From contig JBGPIA010000001.1 in the NCBI GenBank assembly GCA_041484665.1, positions 128,001 to 192,000 on the forward strand: 64,000 nt of DNA. The letters run 5' to 3'. A model generated the notes under the pieces. It was not told the origin of the DNA. It searched no databases and saw only the letters and a list, made by a program, of their open reading frames with translations. The DNA comes from Candidatus Krumholzibacteriia bacterium. GTDB lineage: Bacteria; Krumholzibacteriota; Krumholzibacteriia; JAJRXK01. Shown in pieces: positions 40,410 to 53,322 of this stretch. Numbering within the stretch: position 1 is the stretch's first letter; each line of letters begins with the position of its first letter. A program made the translations under genes and the position numbers.

Positions 40410-43400
40410 TCAGCGTAGCAGCGCCAGCTTGCGGGTGACCGTCTGGTCGAAGCCGGAGACCTCGTACAGGTAGATACCGCTCGCCAGCGCCGCGCCGCTC
40501 GCATCGGTCCCCTTCCAGACGAAGACGTGCCTGCCGGCATCGACCACCCCATCGACCAGCGTGGCCACGCGTTGGCCGCGGAGGTTGTAGACCCTCACGG
40601 TCACCCGCCCGCGCGATGGGGCGCTGAACTCGATCGACGTGATCGGATTGAACGGGTTGGGGTGGTTCTGAGCCAAGACCAGCTCGCCGCTGCCGACGGG
40701 ATCTGCCGCCACTGCGCCACCATCGTGGATCGCACCCTGCTGACGGAACTTGATCAGCAGCTCGCGGAGCAGCTCCGCCCGCGCCGAGCGGCCGTCGGCC
40801 TTGGGGAACACGTCCTGGACGAACATGAACCCGTAGGGAAACGTCACGTTGACGCGGTCGTACGCCGTGCCCGCAATCGTGTCCTGCCTCGCGCTGTGGA
40901 CGCTGGCGGATGGAGCGTATGGGCCCGGGAGAAACTGATGCGCCTTCAGGGCAGTCGCAGCGCCCGGGTTGATGTTGTCGAACAGGTTGATGGATAAGCA
41001 CCCACCGAACGCGATGAAGTGCGTGGCGAAGCCGGTCACCGTACCGGTCGGAGCGACCTCGGGAGCAGTCTGGTTCCCGATGGACGGACGGACGTTGTCG
41101 CCGACCGGCTGCACGCCCATCACGTTGCTACGGAAGGTGACGCCGCCGCCGCCCAGGCCGTTCACGATGTTGTCGCCCCAGTACGCGGCGTATCGGTTGC
41201 CCGCCTGCGCCATCCAGCCCGTCAGGGCGGCGATGTCGTTGCCCTTGTCGTTCTGGCCCGTACTGCTGCCATCGCTGATCAGCCCACTGGCGAGATTGGC
41301 GCTGTCGTAGAAGAGACAGTTGTAGCCTGCCAGCTGGCCCGGGTTGGCGCCGTGGGCGCCCGCCGAGCCCAGGCCGTTGGACACGACCGAGCTCGGCCCA
41401 TTGGTGCGGTACGTGTCGTACTCCTTGTGCAACCGCAACCCGTTCTGGCCGAATGCCTGGATCCACTCGTCGTTGCCACCGCGATCCGGCTGGTCGTTCC
41501 AGAACAGGATGCTGGGCTGCGTGCAAGGATCGGTATCCGCCGCGCCACAGGTCAAGGTCGGTAGGCCGTAGACGGTGAAGATGCGGTTGTAACCGGTGCC
41601 GCTGCTGAAGCCGCTCGTGTCGGCAGGCAGCGTGGAGGTCTCCGCCGGGTTGATCGTGGAGGCCTTGAGGAAGTAGCGGATCTGATCGCCGGGAAAGAAC
41701 AGCGCGGCCTCCGCAGACTCGTAGGCAGCCAGCGTGACCGGGCCGTCCGGCAGGTCGAAGCAGTAGCGGTTGGCAACGATCGAGCCGGAAGCCGTCCTGG
41801 ACGGCTGGCCCTTCACGTAGCCGCGATACTTGTTCCCTCCGATGGACTGGATGTCGGACGTTCCGCCGCCGGCACCGGCCCGCAGAGTCGCGATGCCGCC
41901 CGCTCGCTCGGTCGCGAAGCACGGATTGGCGTCCAGCAGGAACTCCATGCGGATGGAACTTGCATCCACCGAGGACCCCGGTTTGCCGGCCACGAAGTCG
42001 CAGATGATGGAGTCGCCGGGCACGTTCCTCGGTTGCGAGATGGCGCGGATGTCGCGGGCCATGTCCATACGGATGGCCAGCGGTGTATCGTCGGCTCCGG
42101 CACAGGAGATCGCGCCCAAGGTCGGGAAGCTATCATTGAACAGGTCGATTTCACGCGCAACAGCGCGGGGACCCGACGCCTCGTACTTGGCCACGGCGAC
42201 GTTGTCGAACGTCGGGGAGGGAGTCGCGTCGTTCGCAACAAAACTGAATATATCCGCCAGGTCGGTCACCCCCAGCGCGATCTGGACCTTCGTGGGAGAT
42301 GCCACCAGCAGGTCACGAACCTCGGGCTGGACGTTGTTGTAGAGCGCAACACCGCCACCGTAGTAGACGAAGTTACGATCCTTGAAGACCGTCCACGCAC
42401 CGGAGACCGGGTCCGGGAAGCTGCGCACGTGCCACACCCAAAAGATGCCGTTGATCAGCGGCAGGTGCTGCCACACGCTGAAGCGCAGGAAGCAGCCACC
42501 TTCGACGGAATCATCGGCCGTACCGGGCTGATCCCAGTTGATCTCCGGCGACCAGACCTCGTTGCTCAAGGGGGACTGACCGAGGGTCAGGCCGCCCGTA
42601 TAATTGACGACCCAACCGCCGGGTATGCCGTACGTATTGGTCGGCGAGGTGCTACCACCGGTGCTGCGGTGCTGGGGGTCGTTGTTGGGCGGGGTGCCGT
42701 CGTCGATGAAGGTCATCTGCGGCGAGAGATCGTCGCGACAGGGATCGATGTCCTGGAAGTAGGCGAAGATCTTGGAGAAGTCCCCGCAGAAGTCGTGCAG
42801 GACGAGCGTCCAGCCGCCAAGGCTGCCCCCCTGGAACGTGGCCTGGCTCAGGCCCACACCGTTGGTGCCCTGCAGCTGGATGTTGTCGAGCTGGACCGCA
42901 CCGTCGCCGGTGACGTTGAGGCCGTCCTCGTCGGACGCGGCGCCGTCGGAGTCGAACCGACAGCGCAGGTGGACCTGGTCGTGGCCGAAGCCGACGTAGT
43001 CGCCCGCGTGGTAGGTGATGACGCCGTGGAAGACCACGGGCGCCGCGAACACGCCGCCGACTTTGTTGGTGCCGGTATAGCGCGCGAGGTTGATCATCGA
43101 CCCCGCCGAGTCCCACTGCACGTTGAAGAAGTCGTAACCGTTCTCGCTGTCGTGGTTGAACTGCAGATCCCAGCTGATGACCGTGCTATCGGCGGGGTTG
43201 CTCACCGTGAAGCTCTGGTCGAGCAGTTCGTGCCATTGGTTCCCGTAGCCCGTGGTCGAAAAGCCCGTAGGCCCTGCCGGAAGACCAGCCCAGATTGCGT
43301 GATTCGTAACGGGCACCGTGGAGGGGCCCGACCAGTAGGCGGGCCGTGCGGCCATGTTCGCCGCATTGAACGAGTCGATGTGCCAGTGCGGCGGCACTCC

Positions 43401-43715
43401 GGTCAGGTCGACACCCGTCCAGCCCTGCCGGTCGGGGTAACCGAGCGTCGTCTGGAACTTGCCGCTGAGCGAACCCGGCCCCCCGTACAGGAAGACCGTA
43501 TCGCCGGCCGCCTTCGCGGTGGATCCGGTCGGACCGCCGAAGAGAACGGGCTCGGTCCGCCGGTCGGCGATCTGGGGCTGCTCCCACTGCTGGGCGGGGC
43601 GGATGCCCGACGCCAAAGAGGCAGCAGAGGCTCGACCGGCCGCGCCGTGTTGATGCGCGGCGAGCATGAGCGCGAAAAGACCACAGCAAGCGTTCGCGCG
43701 TTGCGCCAGCGCCAT
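40410..43715 (-). CDS. Large secreted protein (about 1100 aa) with C-terminal FlgD-Ig/T9SS-like domain
   Basis: GAAAGGGG RBS, signal-like N-terminus, G/D/N/T-rich body, C-terminal AQNHPNPFNPITSIEF...ASGIYLY...RKLALLR. Confidence 0.85.
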   Translation of the reverse strand: MALAQRANACCGLFALMLAAHQHGAAGRASAASLASGIRPAQQWEQPQIADRRTEPVLFGGPTGSTAKAAGDTVFLYGGPGSLSGKFQTTLGYPDRQGWTGVDLTGVPPHWHIDSFNAANMAARPAYWSGPSTVPVTNHAIWAGLPAGPTGFSTTGYGNQWHELLDQSFTVSNPADSTVISWDLQFNHDSENGYDFFNVQWDSAGSMINLARYTGTNKVGGVFAAPVVFHGVITYHAGDYVGFGHDQVHLRCRFDSDGAASDEDGLNVTGDGAVQLDNIQLQGTNGVGLSQATFQGGSLGGWTLVLHDFCGDFSKIFAYFQDIDPCRDDLSPQMTFIDDGTPPNNDPQHRSTGGSTSPTNTYGIPGGWVVNYTGGLTLGQSPLSNEVWSPEINWDQPGTADDSVEGGCFLRFSVWQHLPLINGIFWVWHVRSFPDPVSGAWTVFKDRNFVYYGGGVALYNNVQPEVRDLLVASPTKVQIALGVTDLADIFSFVANDATPSPTFDNVAVAKYEASGPRAVAREIDLFNDSFPTLGAISCAGADDTPLAIRMDMARDIRAISQPRNVPGDSIICDFVAGKPGSSVDASSIRMEFLLDANPCFATERAGGIATLRAGAGGGTSDIQSIGGNKYRGYVKGQPSRTASGSIVANRYCFDLPDGPVTLAAYESAEAALFFPGDQIRYFLKASTINPAETSTLPADTSGFSSGTGYNRIFTVYGLPTLTCGAADTDPCTQPSILFWNDQPDRGGNDEWIQAFGQNGLRLHKEYDTYRTNGPSSVVSNGLGSAGAHGANPGQLAGYNCLFYDSANLASGLISDGSSTGQNDKGNDIAALTGWMAQAGNRYAAYWGDNIVNGLGGGGVTFRSNVMGVQPVGDNVRPSIGNQTAPEVAPTGTVTGFATHFIAFGGCLSINLFDNINPGAATALKAHQFLPGPYAPSASVHSARQDTIAGTAYDRVNVTFPYGFMFVQDVFPKADGRSARAELLRELLIKFRQQGAIHDGGAVAADPVGSGELVLAQNHPNPFNPITSIEFSAPSRGRVTVRVYNLRGQRVATLVDGVVDAGRHVFVWKGTDASGAALASGIYLYEVSGFDQTVTRKLALLR

Positions 43716-43957
43716 GACCGCACCCCTTTCCGCGCGGATATCGCGGGGGCGTGGCCTCCGACTGCTGGCTCCAACCGTGACAAGGAGGGAAGTGAGGTCG
43801 TCACGCCCGCGCTGCGCATCGCCTCGCCGCACCAGGCTGGATCCAGCGATCAACAGGCTAGCACCGGGGGCAGCCCGTGTCAATGAGTTTACCGCTGCGA
43901 GTAGTCCTTTTCGACGGGCGGCCCGAACGGTCCGACGCGGGCCTGCGGCGCGGGCGC

Positions 43958-45103
43958 CTAGACCCCCAGCAGCGACGCGATCAGGACCCGCTGGATCTCC
44001 GAGGTCCCCGAGTAGATGCGGCCGGCGATGGCATCGCGCAGCTCGCGCTCCACCTCGTACTCGGCCATGTAGCCGTAACCGCCGTGGATCTGGATGGCAT
44101 CCTGCGCCGACCGCACCCAGCTCTCGCTGATGTGCAGCTTCGCCAAGGCCGCCTCCAGGTAGATGCTCTTGCCCCTGCTGCGCAGCCAGCCGGCGCGGTA
44201 GAGCAACGCGCGGGATGTCTCCACCTGCAGCTTCATGTCCACCAGCTTGGAGCCGATCAGCTGGAACTTACCGATCGCCTGCCCGAACTGCTTGCGCTCG
44301 TTGGTGTAGCGCACGCAGGTGTCCAGCAGGCGCTGCATCGAGCCCACCGCGCTGGCCAGGATGCAGCTGCGCTCCCAGGTCATGGAGTCGGCGAAGAGGC
44401 TCTTGCCCGCCCCCTCGCGCCCCAGCCGGTTTTCCACGGGCACCTCGCAGTCGTCGAAGAACAGCTCGCTCATGGGCGATGTGCGCAGCCCCATCTTGTG
44501 CGCGTGTGGGCCAACCGTGAGCCCCGGGGTCTCCCGCTCGACCAGGAATCCGCTGATGCCGTTGGGTCCTTTGGCCCGGTCGACGGTGGCGTACACCAGA
44601 TACAGGCCGGCGATCGGGCCGTTGCTGACGAAGATCTTGCTGCCGTTGAGCACGTAGCGATCACCGCGCAGCTGCGCCGTCGCGGTGAGGCCGTAGGCAT
44701 CCGAGCCCGAGCCCGGCTCGGACATGGCGTTGGCGCCGATCAGCTCGCCGCTGCACAGCCGCGGCAGGTAGCGGCGCTTCTGCTCCTGCGTACCGAAGCC
44801 CAGGATGGGGATCTCCAGCGTCCACATGTGCGCGTTAATGGAGAAGATCAGCCCGTTGTCCCGGCAGCCGTAGCCAAGGCTCTCCAGCACGCCCACGGTG
44901 GTGAGGGCGTCCTGCCCCGAGCCACCATACTCTTGCGGGATCGGCAGCCCGTGCACCCCCATCTCGGCGCACTTGCGCCAGCCATCGGCATTGAACTCGC
45001 CGCGCTCGTCGCGCCCCAGCAGGTCGCCGTTGAGCTCGGCCTTCGCGAAGGCGTAGATGGTGTCGCGCAACTGCGTTTGATCGTCGCTCCAGGCGAAGTC
45101 CAT
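43958..45103 (-). CDS. Acyl-CoA dehydrogenase family, L-prolyl-[carrier protein] dehydrogenase-like (AnaB/PltE/RedW type)
   Basis: ACAD motifs SEPGSGSD, NGSKIF, KMGLR, RKQFG, IHGGYGY, IYSGTSEIQR; N-terminus MDFAW and WERSCILA resemble AnaB-type enzymes; adjacent to an A domain and carrier protein. Confidence 0.85.
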   Translation of the reverse strand: MDFAWSDDQTQLRDTIYAFAKAELNGDLLGRDERGEFNADGWRKCAEMGVHGLPIPQEYGGSGQDALTTVGVLESLGYGCRDNGLIFSINAHMWTLEIPILGFGTQEQKRRYLPRLCSGELIGANAMSEPGSGSDAYGLTATAQLRGDRYVLNGSKIFVSNGPIAGLYLVYATVDRAKGPNGISGFLVERETPGLTVGPHAHKMGLRTSPMSELFFDDCEVPVENRLGREGAGKSLFADSMTWERSCILASAVGSMQRLLDTCVRYTNERKQFGQAIGKFQLIGSKLVDMKLQVETSRALLYRAGWLRSRGKSIYLEAALAKLHISESWVRSAQDAIQIHGGYGYMAEYEVERELRDAIAGRIYSGTSEIQRVLIASLLGV

Positions 45104-45206
45104 CGTGCTCTCCCGTCCGGCGCGGTCGGTGGCGCTGGGCGCGCGGTGCGCAGAGCGCGAGCCCTCGCGCGTGGCGCCCGCCGTTCCCCGCGCGCTGCCG
45201 CGCCGG

Positions 45207-46763
45207 TCAGCCCAGGCTCAGCAGCCGCTGGTAGTCGGTTTTGTCGGTGGAGGTCTTGGGTAGCTCCCGGTGGAACGCGAACAGGTCGGGGATCATGTAC
45301 AGCGGCAGGTGTTGCGAGCAGTGCCGCTTGAGCTCGATGATGGACATGCGCTCACTGCCCTTGACGTAGATGTGGGCCTTGATCCGCAGCCCGGCCTGCG
45401 GGTCGGGCAGCGCCACGACCGCCGCCTCCCACACCTGCGGATGTCGGTAGAGGCAAACCTCGATCTCGCCGAGCTCCACGCGATAGCCGCGCTTCTTGAC
45501 CATGCGGTCCTTGCGGCCCAGGAAGCGGAGGTTGCCGTCAGCCTCCTCGATGACCAGGTCGCCCGTCTTGTACCAGCGTCCGCCGTCGGGCAAGGTGACG
45601 AAAGCCCGCTGCGTCAGCTCGGGAAGGCTCCAGTAGCCCTGCATGACGCCGGAGCCGCGGATGCACAGCTCCCCCTCCTGCCCGTGCCCCACCGGCGCGC
45701 CCCGGTCGTCCAGCACGACGCCTTCCAGGTGCGAGCACACCCGGCCGATCGGAACTGGCTCGGTGCGGTCGGCGGCAATCGTTGCAGGGATCTCGTACCA
45801 AGTGCAGACGTTGGTCTCGGTGGGGCCGTAGAGGTTGTAGTAGCGCGGCGCGGGCCACTGCTCTTTGAGCGCTCGCAAATGCACGACCGGGAAGACCTCG
45901 CCGGCGAACAGCACGGTGCGCACGCTCGAGCAGTCGTGGGTCTCCAGCTTGCCGTACTGTACGAGCAGCGTGAGGATCGACGGCGTGGAGTACCACACGG
46001 TGATGCGCGCGTCGGCGATCAAGTTCGACAGCGCCAGCGGATCCTTGCCGATGTCCTCCGGGATGAGCGCGAGCATCGCTCCATGCTTGAGCGGTGTGTA
46101 GATGTCCAGGATCGAGAGATCGAAGTGGAACGGCGCGTGGGACGAGAAACGGTCCTCGGGCGTGGGTGAGAACGTCGCCGTGCACCAGTCCACGAAGCTC
46201 TGGGCATTGCGGTGCGAGAGCATCACGCCCTTGGGCTTTCCCGTTGAGCCCGACGTGTACAGGATGTACGCCAGTTCGTCGGGCTGTGACTCGACCGTGG
46301 CTGTGGCCGGCGCGGGCCCCGCGGCGTCGAGGCGATCCAGCGCACCGCCCAGGGCGGCCCCTGCGCCCACGCCCTCCAGCGACAGCCAGGCCGGCGTTGC
46401 CCCGGCACGGTCCAGCTCCTGCGCCAGCGGGGCCTGCAGCGCCGCCTCGGCGACCACCGCGCGCACCGTACAGTTGCCCAGGATGTAGCCATTGCGCGTA
46501 GCCGGCGCCGTCGGATCGACCGGCACGTAGGCGGCCCCGCACTTGAGGACGCCGAAGATGGTGGCCACCGAGTCGATGGACTTGTGCAGGCACAGACCCA
46601 CGCGGTCGCCGCGCCGCACACCCAGTGCAGCCAGGCGGTCGCGCACCCGCTCAGACAGCCGGTCGAGCGCCTGATAGGTGATGGTCTGACCCGACGGCTC
46701 CCGGATCGCGATGCGCGAGCCGTAGCGTGAGGCCGCCGCGGTGAAATCGCCGTGCAGCGCCAT
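45207..46763 (-). CDS. Stand-alone amino-acid adenylation enzyme, predicted L-proline:carrier protein ligase (PltF/AnaC/RedM type)
   Basis: YTSGSTGKPKG, FDLS, NLYGPTE, YKTGD, GYRVELGEIE, PKTSTDK; hand-aligned specificity residues DLLYLALVCK. Confidence 0.88.
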   Translation of the reverse strand: MALHGDFTAAASRYGSRIAIREPSGQTITYQALDRLSERVRDRLAALGVRRGDRVGLCLHKSIDSVATIFGVLKCGAAYVPVDPTAPATRNGYILGNCTVRAVVAEAALQAPLAQELDRAGATPAWLSLEGVGAGAALGGALDRLDAAGPAPATATVESQPDELAYILYTSGSTGKPKGVMLSHRNAQSFVDWCTATFSPTPEDRFSSHAPFHFDLSILDIYTPLKHGAMLALIPEDIGKDPLALSNLIADARITVWYSTPSILTLLVQYGKLETHDCSSVRTVLFAGEVFPVVHLRALKEQWPAPRYYNLYGPTETNVCTWYEIPATIAADRTEPVPIGRVCSHLEGVVLDDRGAPVGHGQEGELCIRGSGVMQGYWSLPELTQRAFVTLPDGGRWYKTGDLVIEEADGNLRFLGRKDRMVKKRGYRVELGEIEVCLYRHPQVWEAAVVALPDPQAGLRIKAHIYVKGSERMSIIELKRHCSQHLPLYMIPDLFAFHRELPKTSTDKTDYQRLLSLG

Positions 46764-46838
46764 GGGGATGACCTCTTGCTGCGAGATGCCGTCGCCCGGC
46801 CCGTGCCATCGTGCGGCGAGCTGCTGACTTCCAACGGA

Positions 46839-47093
46839 TCAGAGCTTCGTGAGCACGAGGCTCGCGACATCGGCGATCGTGCCGAGGTTCTCCACGTCGG
46901 CCTCGTGCGCCTCCACTGAGATGTCGAACTCCTTCTCCAGGAAGGAGATCAGCTTCAGCGTGGCGATGGAGTCCAGGATCCCGGTCGTGTACAGCGGAGT
47001 GTCCGGCGCAAGCGCGGCCGGATCTTCGCCCTCCAAGAACTCCCGCAGGATGAACCCCTTCACCTTTTCCTGGACGGCCTGGCGATCATGCAT
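46839..47093 (-). CDS. Stand-alone acyl/peptidyl carrier protein
   Basis: 84 aa, acidic, GILDSIA phosphopantetheinylation Ser; AGGAG RBS. Confidence 0.92.
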   Translation of the reverse strand: MHDRQAVQEKVKGFILREFLEGEDPAALAPDTPLYTTGILDSIATLKLISFLEKEFDISVEAHEADVENLGTIADVASLVLTKL

Positions 47094-47131
47094 GTCATCG
47101 CTCCTGTGGTGTTGTCAGTCCCGTCGCCCGC

Positions 47132-47191
47132 TGTCGTCAGTGCTGTCGTCCGCTGTTGTCCGTGCTCTTGTCCGGTGTCGTCAGTGCTGTC
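47132..47191. repeat. 16-bp direct repeat in the MBOAT-carrier intergenic region
   Basis: TGTCGTCAGTGCTGTC at 47132-47147 and 47176-47191. Confidence 0.8.
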
Positions 47192-47220
47192 ATCTCGCCG
47201 CGTCGGTCCGGTCGTGGCGA

Positions 47221-49839
47221 TCAAAGCCCCAGCTGCGGCGCCAGCGCCGGGTACAGCGCCTCGGCGATCATGCGGTGCGCCATGGCGTTGGGGTGCCCAT
47301 CCCACTTCGCAATCTGGAGCTGCTCCATGGACGGCGCGCTCTTGTAGACGTCCAGCAGGTCGATCGCCGTGATTCCAGCCTGCCGGGCCAGCTCCATCTG
47401 CCGGCGCATCTCGGCGGTGCTCTCGGCGCTCTCGACGCGCGGCTGTGGCATGAAGACGCCCAGCGGCTTGATCCCGCGCTGCAAGCACCGCTGCGTCATC
47501 TCCTGGTAGACCCAGAGCAGAGCCTGTTCGCGGTATGGCCGCAGCTTCGCGTCTGCCTCCGCCGGCGACATGCCGTTGCGGATCCCGGACTGCCGCACCA
47601 GCTCGGTCAGCGGCGCGTAGGGCAGCGCGTAGCCGGCCTCCACGCTCTCGGCGAGCTCCTTCGCCACCCAGTAGAGGTCGTTGATGCCGACGGTGAGCAG
47701 CGCGTCGGGCTGGAACTCCAGGGCCTTGCGATCCAGCACGCACAGCCGCGCGACGGGCCCGTACCCCCCCACCGAGAAGTTGAGGATCTCGTAGCGGCGA
47801 TGCTCCTGCGCCCCGTGCTCGGCGTTCAGGCGGTCCTCGACGAGGCTCTCGAAGTCCTGGCCGTCTTCCACGCCTGTGCCCATGGCGTGGGAATCCCCCA
47901 GCAGCGCCACGCGGTATGTGCGGGACGGCTTCTGTTGCTCGTAGTCGCGGTCGCGCATGGCCCAGCGATTGGTCGTCATCATCGCGCCCTTGAACGCGAC
48001 GTGGCGCGACGGCAACAGCTCGTGGGTAGGGAAGCTCCCCGTGCGATGGATGGCCCAGCAGCGGTCCCAGTTGGGCGGCTTCTCGGCGTAGAGCGCGGCA
48101 AGCTGCGGGTTGAAGCGCGTGACGTCGGTGAGGTCCTCGTAGTAGCCGCGGTCGAGCATCTGCGCGTCGGTGCGCGAGAGGCGCAGCGGGTTTTTGAGCC
48201 GGTCCACCACGTCGGCGACGGCCGGATCGTAGTGCAGCACCAGCGAGCCGTACGCAATCACGAGCAGGCCGCAGCTGGCCAGCCCCACGCGCACCGCACT
48301 CCACGGGATGGGGAGCCCCGCAGCGACTTGGGGTGCGGCCGGGACCGCGCCCCGCGCGCCAGCCAGTGCAGCGGCCGTCGCAGCAGCCGTTGCAGCCGCT
48401 GTCGCGGCCTTCTCCCTGCGGTCGTACCAGACCGCGGCCAGCCCCAGCGCCACCAGACCGCCCAAGATCCAGGCGGCGTCGGCCACTCCCATCACGCGCA
48501 GCTTGCCAGCGGCCAGGCGCAACTCGCCCAGCGACGGAGCCGACCAGATCGCCCAGCTCGCGCAGATCACGGCAAATGTCCCCACCGTGCGCAGGGCGAG
48601 CTGCAGGTCGGACCCCAACGTGCGGCGCGCTGCGGTCAGGCTGCGGCGGCGACCGTGGCGGGCCTCCCGCAGCATGTTGGCCAGCACCACCAGGCCCATG
48701 ACCGACCAGAAAACGATGTCCTGCCAGATCACGGGAAAGCTGCCCCGGATCCAGAACCACTGGTAGGAGTGCAGCGCCCAGGTGGCGAAGAAGGCGACGA
48801 ACGTGGCCAGCACCAGCGCGGCCGTGGCGCCCATGCGCTTGCTGAGCCGGAAGTAGACCGGATTGAAGAAGATCTTCTGGAGGAACTCCTTCCAGTAGAT
48901 GTTGATGCGCCGCCAGTAGTCGGTGAAGCTGCTCGCCAGGAAGTACCTGTGGTTGGTCTGCGGCAGCGCGAACCCGAACGCGCGCATCATCCCGATCGCG
49001 AGATGGAAACTGCCGGAGATGCGCAGGTACAGCAGGTAGGGCCGGACCAGATAGAGCGCCGCGCCCCCTGCGCTCTTGACCGAGGCCGGATCCACCGACA
49101 AGTACTGGTACACGAGGCGGTACAGCAGGAGCTGCATCAGCCCGCGGAACATCCACTCGATTCCGCTCTGGGCAATGTGCAACTCGTCGACGGAGCCGCG
49201 CGACCGGCAGAATGTCTTGTAGTCGACCACCGGGAAGAGCGGGAAGCAGAGATTGGGCAGCATGAAGAAGTACGCGAGCGCCCGCCAGGCGCCAAACGGC
49301 GCGGTGCGGTTGCGCAGGTCGTACAGGTAAACGATCAATCGGAACATGAACATCGCGCCGAAGATCGGCCAGATCGAGGACGACCACGGCGCGTGCCACC
49401 ATCCGGCGCGCAGGCAGGCCAGCGCTACGCCCGCCACGAGCACGAGCCCCAGGCGCAACGCAAACGCCACCGGCAGGTGAATCAGCGCGATGAGCACGGC
49501 GCCGATCGCCAGCAGCCACGCGCCTTGGGCGAATCCGAAGACGACGACCGTACCGGCGGCCGAGAGCAGCACGAAGAACGGCAGGCGAGCGCGCTCGGGC
49601 AGCCAGTGGAAGACGGCGAAGCCGCCGCAGGCCAGCTCCAGCACGCGGAAGAACGCCGCGCTCTCGATGGCATACGCCTGGACCAGCAACACCAGCAGCA
49701 CGAACTGCGCCGCAGCAACCACGAACGGCAGCAGCCGCGCCCCATGCGGCGCGACGGTGGACGCGCCCGGCGCGCCGGGCGAGAGGGGTCGCGCGCGCAG
49801 GGCTCCCGCGGGCGGCCTGGCGAGCGGCGAGTCCGTCAT
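47221..49839 (-). CDS. MBOAT O-acyltransferase (DltB/AlgI-like) fused to an SGNH domain (DltD/AlgJ-like)
   Basis: Multi-TM N-terminus with FMFRLIVYLYD, FLASSFTDYWRRINIYW, TWALHSY; soluble C-terminus with GDSH, VGGYG, GIND, DGHPN; start uncertain. Confidence 0.85.
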   Translation of the reverse strand: MTDSPLARPPAGALRARPLSPGAPGASTVAPHGARLLPFVVAAAQFVLLVLLVQAYAIESAAFFRVLELACGGFAVFHWLPERARLPFFVLLSAAGTVVVFGFAQGAWLLAIGAVLIALIHLPVAFALRLGLVLVAGVALACLRAGWWHAPWSSSIWPIFGAMFMFRLIVYLYDLRNRTAPFGAWRALAYFFMLPNLCFPLFPVVDYKTFCRSRGSVDELHIAQSGIEWMFRGLMQLLLYRLVYQYLSVDPASVKSAGGAALYLVRPYLLYLRISGSFHLAIGMMRAFGFALPQTNHRYFLASSFTDYWRRINIYWKEFLQKIFFNPVYFRLSKRMGATAALVLATFVAFFATWALHSYQWFWIRGSFPVIWQDIVFWSVMGLVVLANMLREARHGRRRSLTAARRTLGSDLQLALRTVGTFAVICASWAIWSAPSLGELRLAAGKLRVMGVADAAWILGGLVALGLAAVWYDRREKAATAAATAAATAAALAGARGAVPAAPQVAAGLPIPWSAVRVGLASCGLLVIAYGSLVLHYDPAVADVVDRLKNPLRLSRTDAQMLDRGYYEDLTDVTRFNPQLAALYAEKPPNWDRCWAIHRTGSFPTHELLPSRHVAFKGAMMTTNRWAMRDRDYEQQKPSRTYRVALLGDSHAMGTGVEDGQDFESLVEDRLNAEHGAQEHRRYEILNFSVGGYGPVARLCVLDRKALEFQPDALLTVGINDLYWVAKELAESVEAGYALPYAPLTELVRQSGIRNGMSPAEADAKLRPYREQALLWVYQEMTQRCLQRGIKPLGVFMPQPRVESAESTAEMRRQMELARQAGITAIDLLDVYKSAPSMEQLQIAKWDGHPNAMAHRMIAEALYPALAPQLGL

Positions 49840-50022: not shown

Positions 50023-50052
50023 AGCATACCATCCGGCGCGACCGCCGGGCAA
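50023..50052 (-). promoter_or_regulatory. Putative sigma70 promoter of the MBOAT-carrier-A-domain-dehydrogenase operon
   Basis: TTGCCC-18 nt-TATGCT with a TG extended -10 on the minus strand. Confidence 0.5.
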
Positions 50053-50157: not shown

Positions 50158-53157
50158 CTACTTCACCAGGCTCATGCTGCGAGTGGCCTGGAAATCACCC
50201 GCCTCGATCCGGTACAGGTACGTACCGCTGGCCACCGCCGCGCCGTTCGCGTCGCGACCGTCCCAGCGCACACTGTGCGAGCCCTCGGTCAGCTCCCCCG
50301 CCAAGAGGGAGCGGATCATCCGGCCCGAAACGTCGTAGATCCGCAGCGTCGCGTGACCGGCCTGCGGCAGGTCGAACGCGATCATGGTCGACGGGTTGAA
50401 CGGGTTCGGCCGGTTCTGCGCCAGGAGATACCGCTGCGGCAGGCCCGACGACGGCGTGCCCACGTCCGTGGCGTCGAAGCTGACGATCTCGAAGTCATCG
50501 ACCGCCGCCTCGACCAGCGATCCCGGCGGCGCGTCCTCGGCAATGAACCGCAGCCGCACCTGGTCGGTCGGCGCGAGGATATCCTCCACGCGCACGATCA
50601 CCTTCGACCAGACGTTGGCCGATAGCAGCGTGTTCTCGACATCGGACCACGTGGTGCCGCCGTCGTTGCTGATCTTCACGCGCCACACGTCCGTGCCCGG
50701 CGCGCTGCCCAGGTTGTTGGTGTACCAGCGCCAGTACCGGATGGCCGGGTGGTGCATTCCGGAGAGGTTGAACACCGGCGTCTGGAGCGTCGTCTTTCCC
50801 CCGTCGACGTCCTCGGTGCCTGCCGGATCGGCCGGCGACGCAGCGTTACCGGTCACGAAGCACTGCACTCCGGCCAGTGTATGGTCGTCCTCCGGCTGCG
50901 CGGGCACGCCGTCGACGTTGCTGCCGATCGGATCGGCTTGCACCCACCGCCCGGTGGTGGCCGTGTCGTCAGCATTGGGGTTTACGGTCCAGGATGCCGC
51001 CGCCTCGAACGTCTGTAGGACTTGCTGGATCTGCGGTCCGACCAGGAATGAGAAGGGCAGCACCTGCGGCGTCTCCGGCAGCGTGATCGGCGACCCTCCG
51101 GCTGCGCTGGCGCGGAAGGAGTAGCGCACCAGCGTCCCCAGCGGCTGCGCGGGGATGGCCCCGTTGAACACGCCGCCGCCGGCCGGCGTCATGGGCGCGA
51201 CGGTCTCGGAGCCGCCGTCGAGTGTATAGACCAGCTGCACCGAGGAGGGATCGACGGCGAACAACGCGCTGCCGCTGGTCACCGTCGCAGCGATCGCCAG
51301 CGAGTTGGCCATGTCCACGGTGTCGGCGTGCTCCGTGTGGGCGATCGCGACATAGAGCGATGGCCCGATGCCGTGCTGGTTGAAGGCCTGCAGGATCTGG
51401 CTCCAGTGCGGTGTCTGGTTGGCCAGGTTCCCGTCGTCGTCATCGGCCACGAGCGTCTCGAGGAAGACCTCCTCGTAGGCGATGTGCGTGTCCACATCGT
51501 CGGGCAGCCCATACTTGGCGAAGTGGGCCAGATGCTGCGTCGTGGACAGGCCGACCAGCAGCCGCAGGTCCCAGAAAGCCCCTCCGATGATCAGGCCGTC
51601 GGTATGCACCTCGCCGGAGACGTCGCGCGGCCAGGTATTGGTGTTGACCAGGTCGCGGATGTGACCGCCGCCGACGAAGAATCCCTGGCCGATGACTGGG
51701 TCGTCCTCGACCATCGCCGCGTTGATGTCGGCCGTGCCCTCGTGGAGCGCGCCGTTGATCATCCCTAAGGGGCTGCCCAGCGACACGTAGAGGTTATCGT
51801 TGATGCCGTGGCCGTACTCGTGGAAGACGACGTCAGAGACCGACCCCGTGTTGTTGCATCCGGCGCCCGCCGCAAAGAAGTTGAGCCCCGTCCCATCCCA
51901 GAACGCGTTGCAGGTCTGGGGGATGTTGACCAGCACCGGGATGGCGTGGTCCAGCGCGACGAAGGATGGATCGATCCCCTTGATGTACGCGTGGGCGCGG
52001 GTGGTGTTGTAGAACGTATCGCGCTCGGGCTGGATGCTGTTCGCATTCGTGAACGGGATGTCCACGACCGGACTCACGTTGGGGTTGATGCCGGACTGGC
52101 TGAACAGGGCGGTGCTGCCGCCATCATTGCGGCTGACGGCGGCGAAGGGGCCGCGCATACGGGCGGTCAGCGAGATCGTTCCGCTGACCCCCGTCCGGCT
52201 GTAGAGGCCTGTGACATCGCTCTGCACGACGGCGCCGCCGGTCCCGGTCACCGTGACGGCGCAATCGCGCACCGGCAGGGTCTGCGGAACGTCCTCGGGT
52301 GACTGCGGATGGACCAGCCCGGTGACGGTGCCGCTCACGCTCGCGTAGCGCACGCGGTCGAAGCGCCAGCGCACCAGACCGCTGTGGGCGTCCACGAACG
52401 TATCCCACTCGTGGGGCGGCTCGGCCTGGCTCACGCGCACCCGGCGCACCAGCGCGTAGTCTGCGGCGGTGGCCGTCTCCAGCGGGAGCACGTAGAGCTC
52501 GTCGCCGCCGCTCGCGGAGTCGGCGTTAGGGTCGAAGACCAAGCCGGCGCGCGCCAGCACGCGAGCCGTCGCGGCGTCCACCGTCGGCACCACGTCGAGC
52601 TGTATGCCGGTGCGCGTGTCGGAGCCGAAGGCGAACACGCTGCCGTCGACGTCCAGGCGCACGGTGACGTCGGTGAGCAGCAGCGGCACGCCCTGGAAGC
52701 GCTGCTGGAAGTGGACATACCAGACGCGTCCCGCCTGCTCGGTGGCCGCCAGCTGGAGATCGGCCCCGGCAGCCCTGGTTAGCGCCGACTCCGAGCGCAA
52801 GAACCCGAGCGCGGCGGCCTGCGCTTGCTGTGGCGTGGCGATCGTGCCGGCGACGCGGATGCCGGCGCCAAAGGCGCGGTGCGGCGTCGCGGTCAGCGCG
52901 TTCCAGAGCACGTCCCAGCCGGAGTGGCGAGCGGTGAAATCGCCCCAGATGGCCGCGGCCTTGGCCGGCCCTGCGGGCGGGGCGGCAGTGATGAACGCGG
53001 CGCGGCCGGATTCCTGGGGCAATGGCACGGCGCCGTTGGCGGGCGATCCGGGCGTCTGGACTGCGAAGGCGGGCGAGGCACAAACCAAGAGGACAAACAG
53101 GAGCAGCGAAAGGCGGCCAACGTGGCGCGCTCTCCGGGACGGACGGGTCCGGATCAT
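50158..53157 (-). CDS. Secreted M4/M36-type zinc metalloprotease with propeptide and FlgD-Ig/T9SS-like C-terminal domain
   Basis: Signal peptide, FTP-like VHFQQRFQGVP, NAFWDG, HEYGH, GALHEGTAD, EVHTDG, C-terminal QNRPNPFNP...ASGTYLY. Confidence 0.9.
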   Translation of the reverse strand: MIRTRPSRRARHVGRLSLLLFVLLVCASPAFAVQTPGSPANGAVPLPQESGRAAFITAAPPAGPAKAAAIWGDFTARHSGWDVLWNALTATPHRAFGAGIRVAGTIATPQQAQAAALGFLRSESALTRAAGADLQLAATEQAGRVWYVHFQQRFQGVPLLLTDVTVRLDVDGSVFAFGSDTRTGIQLDVVPTVDAATARVLARAGLVFDPNADSASGGDELYVLPLETATAADYALVRRVRVSQAEPPHEWDTFVDAHSGLVRWRFDRVRYASVSGTVTGLVHPQSPEDVPQTLPVRDCAVTVTGTGGAVVQSDVTGLYSRTGVSGTISLTARMRGPFAAVSRNDGGSTALFSQSGINPNVSPVVDIPFTNANSIQPERDTFYNTTRAHAYIKGIDPSFVALDHAIPVLVNIPQTCNAFWDGTGLNFFAAGAGCNNTGSVSDVVFHEYGHGINDNLYVSLGSPLGMINGALHEGTADINAAMVEDDPVIGQGFFVGGGHIRDLVNTNTWPRDVSGEVHTDGLIIGGAFWDLRLLVGLSTTQHLAHFAKYGLPDDVDTHIAYEEVFLETLVADDDDGNLANQTPHWSQILQAFNQHGIGPSLYVAIAHTEHADTVDMANSLAIAATVTSGSALFAVDPSSVQLVYTLDGGSETVAPMTPAGGGVFNGAIPAQPLGTLVRYSFRASAAGGSPITLPETPQVLPFSFLVGPQIQQVLQTFEAAASWTVNPNADDTATTGRWVQADPIGSNVDGVPAQPEDDHTLAGVQCFVTGNAASPADPAGTEDVDGGKTTLQTPVFNLSGMHHPAIRYWRWYTNNLGSAPGTDVWRVKISNDGGTTWSDVENTLLSANVWSKVIVRVEDILAPTDQVRLRFIAEDAPPGSLVEAAVDDFEIVSFDATDVGTPSSGLPQRYLLAQNRPNPFNPSTMIAFDLPQAGHATLRIYDVSGRMIRSLLAGELTEGSHSVRWDGRDANGAAVASGTYLYRIEAGDFQATRSMSLVK

Positions 53158-53322
53158 AGCAGGTCCACACCTCCAGAGGTCCACGGGTGGTGAAACGCTC
53201 ACGGTGCCAAGGCGAGCCCGGGGGACCAGGGGAGAGGGGCCGGCCGCAGCGGCGAGAGCCGTCGAGTTCGATCGTCCGCACGCGAGACCCGGAGGGGAAG
53301 GAATCTGCCGCGGTGCCTGGTG

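Follow-up and report, generated by a model that had tools for sequence, protein, structure and literature searches.

A four-gene bacterial cassette joining a predicted proline-oxidising carrier module to a fused MBOAT-SGNH membrane protein: a putative route for pyrrole acylation of extracytoplasmic polysaccharides

We analysed a window of 64,000 nucleotides from a Candidatus Krumholzibacteriia bacterium (contig JBGPIA010000001.1) and focused on four co-oriented minus-strand genes at 43958..49839, separated by intergenic gaps of 127, 75 and 103 nt. They encode a fused MBOAT-SGNH membrane protein, a carrier protein, a stand-alone adenylation (A) enzyme and a homologue of the acyl-CoA dehydrogenases (ACAD). 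An earlier sequence-only reading of the window had described this unit, and we found it with the same content and extent. We lean slightly towards a route in which L-proline, bound to the carrier, would be converted to pyrrole-2-carbonyl and then passed by the MBOAT to a tyrosine on the periplasmic side, to the SGNH serine and finally to hydroxyls of an extracytoplasmic polysaccharide.

The A domain carries the code DLLYLALVCK and fits the consensus L(L/F)YLALVC given for stand-alone L-proline adenylation in passages of PMC3874040; its nine pocket positions were identical to those of PltF in the PDB alignment. PltF was also the best single-domain PDB match (358.7 bits, against 221.7 for the best DltA), and in the pocket region it scored 164.5 bits, followed by a second proline ligase (101.1 bits) and the best DltA (97.3 bits). 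The two NCBIfam DltA models reached 282 and 274 bits and stayed below their cut-offs of 476 and 560. The pattern D-L-(L/F)-Y-x-A-L-V-C was present in 79 of 79 cassette A domains, x being L in 66 of them: 65 had the code of the window, one was the F variant and 13 deviated at the fifth position. In a FastTree phylogeny of 40 of the 51 rows (11 truncated rows were left out), 31 cassette A domains formed a clade of their own (support 99), with natural-product and exosortase-type ligases outside it. PltF and DltA, as well as AnaB, PltE and RedW, are absent from our trees and were compared by PDB alignment only. Activation of L-proline by the A domain is strongly supported, in agreement with the earlier view that the donor is not D-Ala; by homology, the enzyme would adenylate proline and load it on the phosphopantetheine of carrier Ser42, a step with equally strong support. 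One A-domain gene of the family (L250:11524-14625) is seemingly interrupted by a transposase.

The best PDB matches of the carrier were the pyrrolyl/prolyl carriers of 6cxt, PigG and PltL, with DltC after them, and the NCBIfam DltC model gave 33.6 bits against a cut-off of 68. Ser42 was invariant (28 of 28), and the genome encodes two phosphopantetheinyl transferases elsewhere. An NCBIfam assignment as acyl carrier protein (ACP) for OlsHI (105 bits, cut-off 130) was dropped: according to PMC12493201, OlsH requires neither ACP nor coenzyme A (CoA), and that paper has no passage on MBOAT or proline.

The dehydrogenase matched AnaB (4irn) with 470.8 bits, 6cxt with 337.9, 5zw0 with 318.8 and the best generic ACAD with 301; its top NCBIfam models were PigA (447.7 bits, cut-off 500) and RedW (410.7 bits, cut-off 650), both below cut-off. 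We built an IQ-TREE phylogeny of 39 rows, including 7 other ACADs of the host genome, and found a 32-row oxidase clade (100/100) separate from all 7 paralogues. This clade comprised the cassette enzymes, which split into two subclades, one prodigiosin-cluster enzyme (known by its annotated neighbours) and other cluster enzymes. This grouping favours the sequence-only reading of the protein as a prolyl-carrier oxidase and not a generic ACAD. Glu244, in register with the catalytic Glu of AnaB, was kept in 32 of 32 rows of the clade; this residue is the base in AnaB and Bmp3, according to passages of PMC10849742. Oxidation of the prolyl-carrier via Glu244 is strongly supported by homology, and we infer the four- as against the two-electron outcome. 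In two loci, L145:12571-16399 and L033:17279-19035, genes for electron transfer flavoprotein (ETF) subunits adjoin the A and oxidase genes or separate them, the former locus with a membrane Fe-S partner in addition, which suggests that the cassette oxidase can pass electrons to ETF.

The N-terminal half of the membrane protein escaped the standard models: Pfam MBOAT (PF03062) matched 0 of 26 homologues at E 0.1 and left the window's protein unmatched, a PF03062 search of the whole genome missed this 872-aa protein, and neither NCBIfam nor the PDB sequence search detected an MBOAT half. For this reason we compared it by profiles with canonical MBOATs, of which we collected 30 from related genomes and aligned the 27 longer than 380 aa. 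The hhalign comparison gave a probability of 97.97 (E 2.6e-13, 283 columns), the canonical profile matched 25 of 26 homologues by hmmsearch, and Atlas placed the N-terminal part at 0.91 to PF03062 clusters. His357 aligned with the catalytic His and Asn313 with the second polar active-site position of canonical MBOATs, and both were invariant in 97 of 97 full-length homologues. The MBOAT label of the earlier reading is upheld by these comparisons, which support a divergent MBOAT as the probable identity of this half. According to a rough estimate from hydropathy and charge, two extra helices follow the MBOAT core and place a Tyr-Tyr linker and the SGNH domain outside.

Tyr566 and Tyr567 in this linker, about 35 aa past the last predicted membrane helix, were kept in 97 of 97 full-length homologues. 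An FxYxxF motif forms the end of 26 of the 30 canonical MBOATs collected, and passages of PMC12148441 describe this C-terminal motif as an acyl shuttle; the internal Tyr-Tyr is a candidate stand-in for it. In five loci the protein is split into an MBOAT of 422–442 aa and a separate SGNH protein (L239:8645-13061, L240:1944-6348, L033, L041 and L167). In all five the MBOAT stops at profile position 433–436, and the second gene encodes one N-terminal hydrophobic helix, then the Tyr-Tyr, then the SGNH domain. The splits of L239 and L240 are not frameshifts, since the carrier and A genes stand between the two halves. That the Tyr-Tyr stays with the SGNH half is the layout expected of a DltX-like shuttle fused to a DltD-like domain. 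We propose that the loaded carrier would dock on the cytoplasmic face of the MBOAT, where His357 would help to acylate Tyr566 or Tyr567, a step suggested by Dlt and Pat chemistry, by conservation and by the split forms. From this Tyr the group would move to Ser650 and then to a polymer hydroxyl; acceptor genes are not adjacent at this locus. The SGNH triad was conserved as well, with Ser650 in 97 of 97 homologues and Asp847 and His849 in 95 of 97 (2 gaps). Elsewhere, an Anaerolineae locus (L032:9758-13020) encodes a 609-aa MBOAT with two Tyr-Tyr motifs and no SGNH domain, followed by a sulfatase-family gene.

We examined the linkage of the membrane protein to the other three genes in 121 loci, 41 from GTDB genomes and the 80 that ranked best among 436 confirmed metagenome stretches, scored by tblastn. 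Carrier, A domain and oxidase were all found in 67 loci, and carrier and A domain in 83; many others reach contig edges. We took as informative the 38 loci whose flanks extended 5.5 kb or more upstream and 4.5 kb or more downstream: 31 held the full trio, 2 missed only the oxidase and 5 were without the trio. We searched the genomes of three of these five: one (L199) has the trio alone on another contig, another (L200) encodes a further complete cassette, divergent but identical in its proline code, and the third gave only matches of the nonribosomal peptide synthetase type. Gene order was rearranged in L012, L028, L033, L041, L138, L146, L153, L156 and L239, and thus linkage survives rearrangement. 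In genome samples from the family of Aromatoleum, the genus of Microvirga and two further phyla, the trio was complete in 26 of 29 flanked loci (29 of 35 matches; four in centre genomes and two close to contig edges were excluded); this sample shares some genomes with the 121 loci, and kin are not independent. That the MBOAT-SGNH gene is linked to the trio in other genomes speaks for the sequence-only reading.

The trait is patchy. Within the phylum of the window's bacterium, 13 of 208 genomes gave full-length matches; the figures were 15 of 251 for the family of Aromatoleum, 9 of 76 for the genus of Microvirga, and 3 of 401 and 8 of 301 for the two further phyla. When 8000 candidates were scored in a protein search, 2076 proteins were listed at E 0.001, partial matches counted. 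Named hosts belong to Krumholzibacteriota, Eisenbacteria, Pseudomonadota, Methylomirabilota, Planctomycetota, Verrucomicrobiota, Gemmatimonadota and Acidobacteriota, and the cassette is present in Aromatoleum anaerobium and Microvirga makkahensis. Aromatoleum aromaticum EbN1 has close relatives of the A domain and the oxidase under consecutive accessions (CAI08575.1 and CAI08576.1).

Some cassettes contain additional genes. In L028 and L235 the operon includes a PltA-type halogenase, which matches PltA and two close relatives of PltA best: PltA scores 546 bits in L028 and 398 bits in L235, the next family 177 and 178. We counted as halogenase loci L028/L025, L235/L234 and the partial L013. L153 and L173 were rejected, their enzymes being only 27–32% like that of L028, and L153 lacks operon context. 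An O-methyltransferase-family gene lies within the operon in L234 and L235, both with a halogenase, and in L132 and L233. Further genes of L233 encode an AT3 acyltransferase, a halogenase that is more distant, and proteins resembling Asp/Asn beta-hydroxylases. In L013 (1757-12740), a single A domain and a halogenase truncated at the contig end come after three tandem MBOAT-SGNH paralogues and two carriers. On a Rhodobacterales plasmid (L103:7564-11741), polysaccharide export genes adjoin a carrier, a related dehydrogenase, a methyltransferase and an A domain whose code differs; it gave no match to the MBOAT-SGNH protein.

Several observations weigh against the route proposed here, and some of them favour one of four alternatives. 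Tyr240 and Tyr315 are likewise invariant (97 of 97), and the FxYxxF shuttle motif is absent from both fused and split forms of the family. Two loci (L014 and L174) have the carrier and A domain with no dehydrogenase in the fetched flanks. In three others (L034:7619-9609, L167:10516-12511 and L238:1667-5079) the partners of the MBOAT-SGNH are a carrier and an AMP ligase of another kind. By appearance this ligase resembles a fatty acyl-AMP ligase (Pfam gives AMP-binding only), and these loci are possibly a fatty-acyl branch of the same exporter.

The first alternative concerns the acceptor. The neighbours that recur most across loci are GT4 glycosyltransferases (12 loci), sugar transferases (10), flippases (9) and GT2 glycosyltransferases (8). 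After removing own-locus and close-sister matches, 9 of 34 de-duplicated loci had a glycan marker in their flanks, against a mean of 2.1, a 95th percentile of 5 and a maximum of 9 in 2000 draws of random windows from this genome only. The enrichment of glycan genes near cassettes has moderate support: 25 of the 34 loci, including this window, had no glycan marker nearby, and the single-genome control itself reached 9 in at least one draw. In a Microvirga locus (L012) the cassette lies amid glycosyltransferases, a sugar transferase and a flippase, and in L239 and L240 a flippase directly follows the SGNH gene. It is possible, though we think it improbable, that the pyrrole-2-carbonyl is exported to lipopolysaccharide, peptidoglycan, a lipid or a surface (glyco)protein and not to a secreted or capsular polysaccharide: most loci lie away from glycan clusters, and several adjoin exosortase-associated genes or genes for secreted proteins with FlgD-Ig tails. 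Against such acceptors, no neighbours recur more often than flippases and glycosyltransferases, and the characterised MBOAT/SGNH pairs in passages of PMC12148441 all act on envelope glycopolymers. Within this genome, a large polysaccharide locus (G000:C2:225000-275000) has a canonical FxYxxF MBOAT and SGNH proteins, as well as another stand-alone A domain, whose code is different; it is a candidate source of the acceptor.

The oxidation level of the exported group comes next. AnaB, the nearest solved relative of the dehydrogenase, yields pyrroline-5-carboxyl-carrier (passages of PMC3252866), whereas RedW, PltE and Bmp3 yield pyrrole (passages of PMC10849742), and thus sequence alone cannot fix the oxidation level. 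Export by the same route of a pyrroline carboxyl, as from AnaB, at least in the window's subclade, is unlikely in our view, and slightly less probable than a different acceptor. It draws on the wide lead of AnaB over the pyrrole formers 6cxt and 5zw0 and on the two subclades of cassette dehydrogenases, the enzyme of the halogenase-bearing L028 falling in the other subclade than that of the window. Yet PltA chlorinates pyrrolyl-S-carrier, as stated in the title of a reference in PMC10849742, and the product at L028 and L235 is therefore most likely a pyrrole. PigA is moreover the best NCBIfam model, and on general chemical grounds a surface polymer would carry a less stable ester if the group were a pyrroline.

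A third alternative is that the SGNH domain hydrolyses, releasing free (halo- or methyl-)pyrrole-2-carboxylic acid, or that a small molecule is acylated, outside the cytoplasm. The block II Gly692 (position from the alignment) is retained in 81 of 97 homologues and replaced by Ala in 11, while the transferases PatB and OatA have Ser or Asn at this place, according to passages of PMC12148441. Pfam and Atlas also group the domain with GDSL hydrolases rather than with AlgX/DltD, and halogenase and methyltransferase additions are typical of small-molecule pathways. A cytoplasmic thioesterase would however be a simpler way to free the acid, by general reasoning, and the enrichment of glycan genes and the embedding of cassettes in polysaccharide loci speak for transfer to a polymer; we judge release or small-molecule acylation to be quite unlikely. 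Finally, that the trio and the membrane protein are mere neighbours, or that the donor is D-alanine or CoA-derived as in Dlt or AlgI/J, is very improbable: many homologues are named DltB in the JGI annotation and 5 of the 38 informative loci lack the trio, but the proline code, the oxidase clade, the linkage through rearrangements in several phyla and DltA and DltC scores far under cut-off all oppose it.

The sequence-only reading had reported neither condensation domain nor halogenase in the window, and this extends to the whole genome (93.65% complete), which gave no condensation-domain and no Trp_halogenase match. A ketosynthase search gave one full match, in a 419-aa frame, and three partial ones; thioesterases were not searched genome-wide. 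By these searches, the genome is without an assembly line to receive the acyl group.

The features of the locus are listed in Table 1. Pfam assigned SGNH/GDSL (aa 647–856), PP-binding, AMP-binding with its C-terminal domain, and ACAD N, M and C domains to the cassette, whose GC content is that of the window. We set the start of the MBOAT-SGNH gene at ATG 49839 and not at TTG 50052, because homologues begin there. Short imperfect GAC-rich repeats lie at 47110-47200, between this gene and the carrier gene. As to the promoter that had been suggested upstream, the motif is there (TTGCCC-18 nt-TATGCT, the -10 box being preceded by TG, with 8 of 12 consensus bases), and the promoter scanner reported none above threshold at it. 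Of 13 close relatives, 10 have an extended -10-like word in the 330 nt upstream, a count made without a chance control; a promoter at this place is plausible, not established. The products of both flanking genes (40410-43883 and 50158-53202) are large, have a FlgD-Ig domain at the C-terminus and are unrelated to the cassette. That of the upstream gene also has weak M4 peptidase matches, and the downstream open reading frame has the word TTGACA at its listed start, which suggests a promoter of its own and a later true start.

Table 1. Coordinates of the cassette, its putative functional residues and the upstream motif in the 64,000-nt window.
Feature	Position	Strand	Remarks
MBOAT-SGNH fusion, 872 aa	47221..49839	-	MBOAT core at about aa 35-440, two further predicted helices, Tyr-Tyr linker, SGNH aa 644-862
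His357 codon	48769..48771	-	In register with the conserved catalytic His of canonical MBOATs
Tyr566-Tyr567 codons	48139..48144	-	Candidate acyl-shuttle residues
Ser650 codon	47890..47892	-	SGNH nucleophile
Asp847 codon	47299..47301	-	SGNH triad partner of Ser650
His849 codon	47293..47295	-	SGNH triad partner of Ser650
Carrier protein, 84 aa	46839..47093	-	Ser42 as phosphopantetheine site; Pfam PP-binding
Stand-alone adenylation enzyme, 518 aa	45207..46763	-	Code DLLYLALVCK, L-proline type
Prolyl-carrier oxidase homologue, ACAD fold, 381 aa	43958..45103	-	Glu244 codon at 44372..44374
Weak promoter-like motif, extended -10	50023..50052	-	Sequence reading; not reported by the promoter scanner

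We compared the cassette with known systems. It shares with Dlt (DltA, DltC, DltB, DltX and DltD; D-alanylation of teichoic acids) a stand-alone A enzyme, a phosphopantetheinyl carrier, an MBOAT His and an SGNH protein, and its split forms consist of a DltB-sized MBOAT without C-terminal Tyr motif and a membrane-anchored partner with a conserved Tyr. It differs in its proline code instead of D-Ala, in the carrier-bound oxidation, in having MBOAT, shuttle and SGNH mostly in one chain, in the Tyr-Tyr instead of FxYxxF, and in its distribution, mainly in diderm phyla: the cassette works like Dlt but is not Dlt, since donor, shuttle motif and fusion differ. With the type II pyrrole modules (PltF/PltL/PltE(/PltA), PigI/G/A and AnaC/D/B) it has in common the A code, the carrier, the Glu-dependent flavin oxidase and, in some loci, a PltA-type halogenase; RedM/O/W and Bmp4/1/3 are further modules of this proline-to-pyrrole type. 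The cassette has a membrane acyltransferase as partner and an A-domain clade of its own, and its host genome lacks the condensation and halogenase matches of pyrrole natural-product clusters; it uses a pyrrole module, yet it is not such a cluster. In the aminocoumarin system (CloN4/5/3 with CloN2/CloN7), a carrier-made pyrrole-2-carbonyl also ends as an ester on a sugar hydroxyl, but the transfer is cytoplasmic, onto a small antibiotic and by unrelated enzymes. The O-acetyltransferases of the PatA/PatB and AlgI/AlgJ type resemble the cassette in the MBOAT core with two extra helices, the following outer-side Tyr and the Ser-Asp-His triad of the SGNH domain, but they use acetyl-CoA without a carrier and end in FxYxxF (passages of PMC12148441), whereas the cassette encodes a carrier and its Tyr is internal.

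The Dlt-like architecture with an oxidised prolyl donor that the sequence-only reading put forward is supported by the sequence tests; pyrrole or pyrroline, the acceptor, and transfer or hydrolysis we infer. Our analysis added the candidate Tyr-Tyr shuttle, the split forms, the halogenated and methylated variants and the minority with a different acyl-AMP ligase. In agreement with that reading, which knew of no such system, we found no paper on such a cassette, nor one combining MBOAT, SGNH and pyrrole, in the literature searched, which was mostly open-access (subscription surveys or supplements could mention it). MBOAT/SGNH pathways other than Dlt are described in passages of PMC12148441 (2025) as carrier-free, made of separate proteins and with a C-terminal FxYxxF shuttle. 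We propose, with confidence a little short of even, that in many diderm phyla a one-chain equivalent of DltB-DltX-DltD would esterify surface polysaccharides with pyrrole-2-carboxylate, in some cases halogenated or methylated, via the internal Tyr-Tyr, as a new carrier-fed MBOAT-SGNH branch; a building block of natural products, assembled on a carrier, would then be presented at the cell envelope. If true, MBOAT/SGNH systems would have a second carrier-fed class, in which the two domains are fused, the shuttle is another one and the acyl group is aromatic and possibly halogenated. The predicted substituent of the envelope is one that the literature searched does not describe, and a family now annotated as hypothetical or DltB would gain a function. 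For genome mining, it would mean that a proline-carrier-oxidase trio need not signal a diffusible antibiotic.

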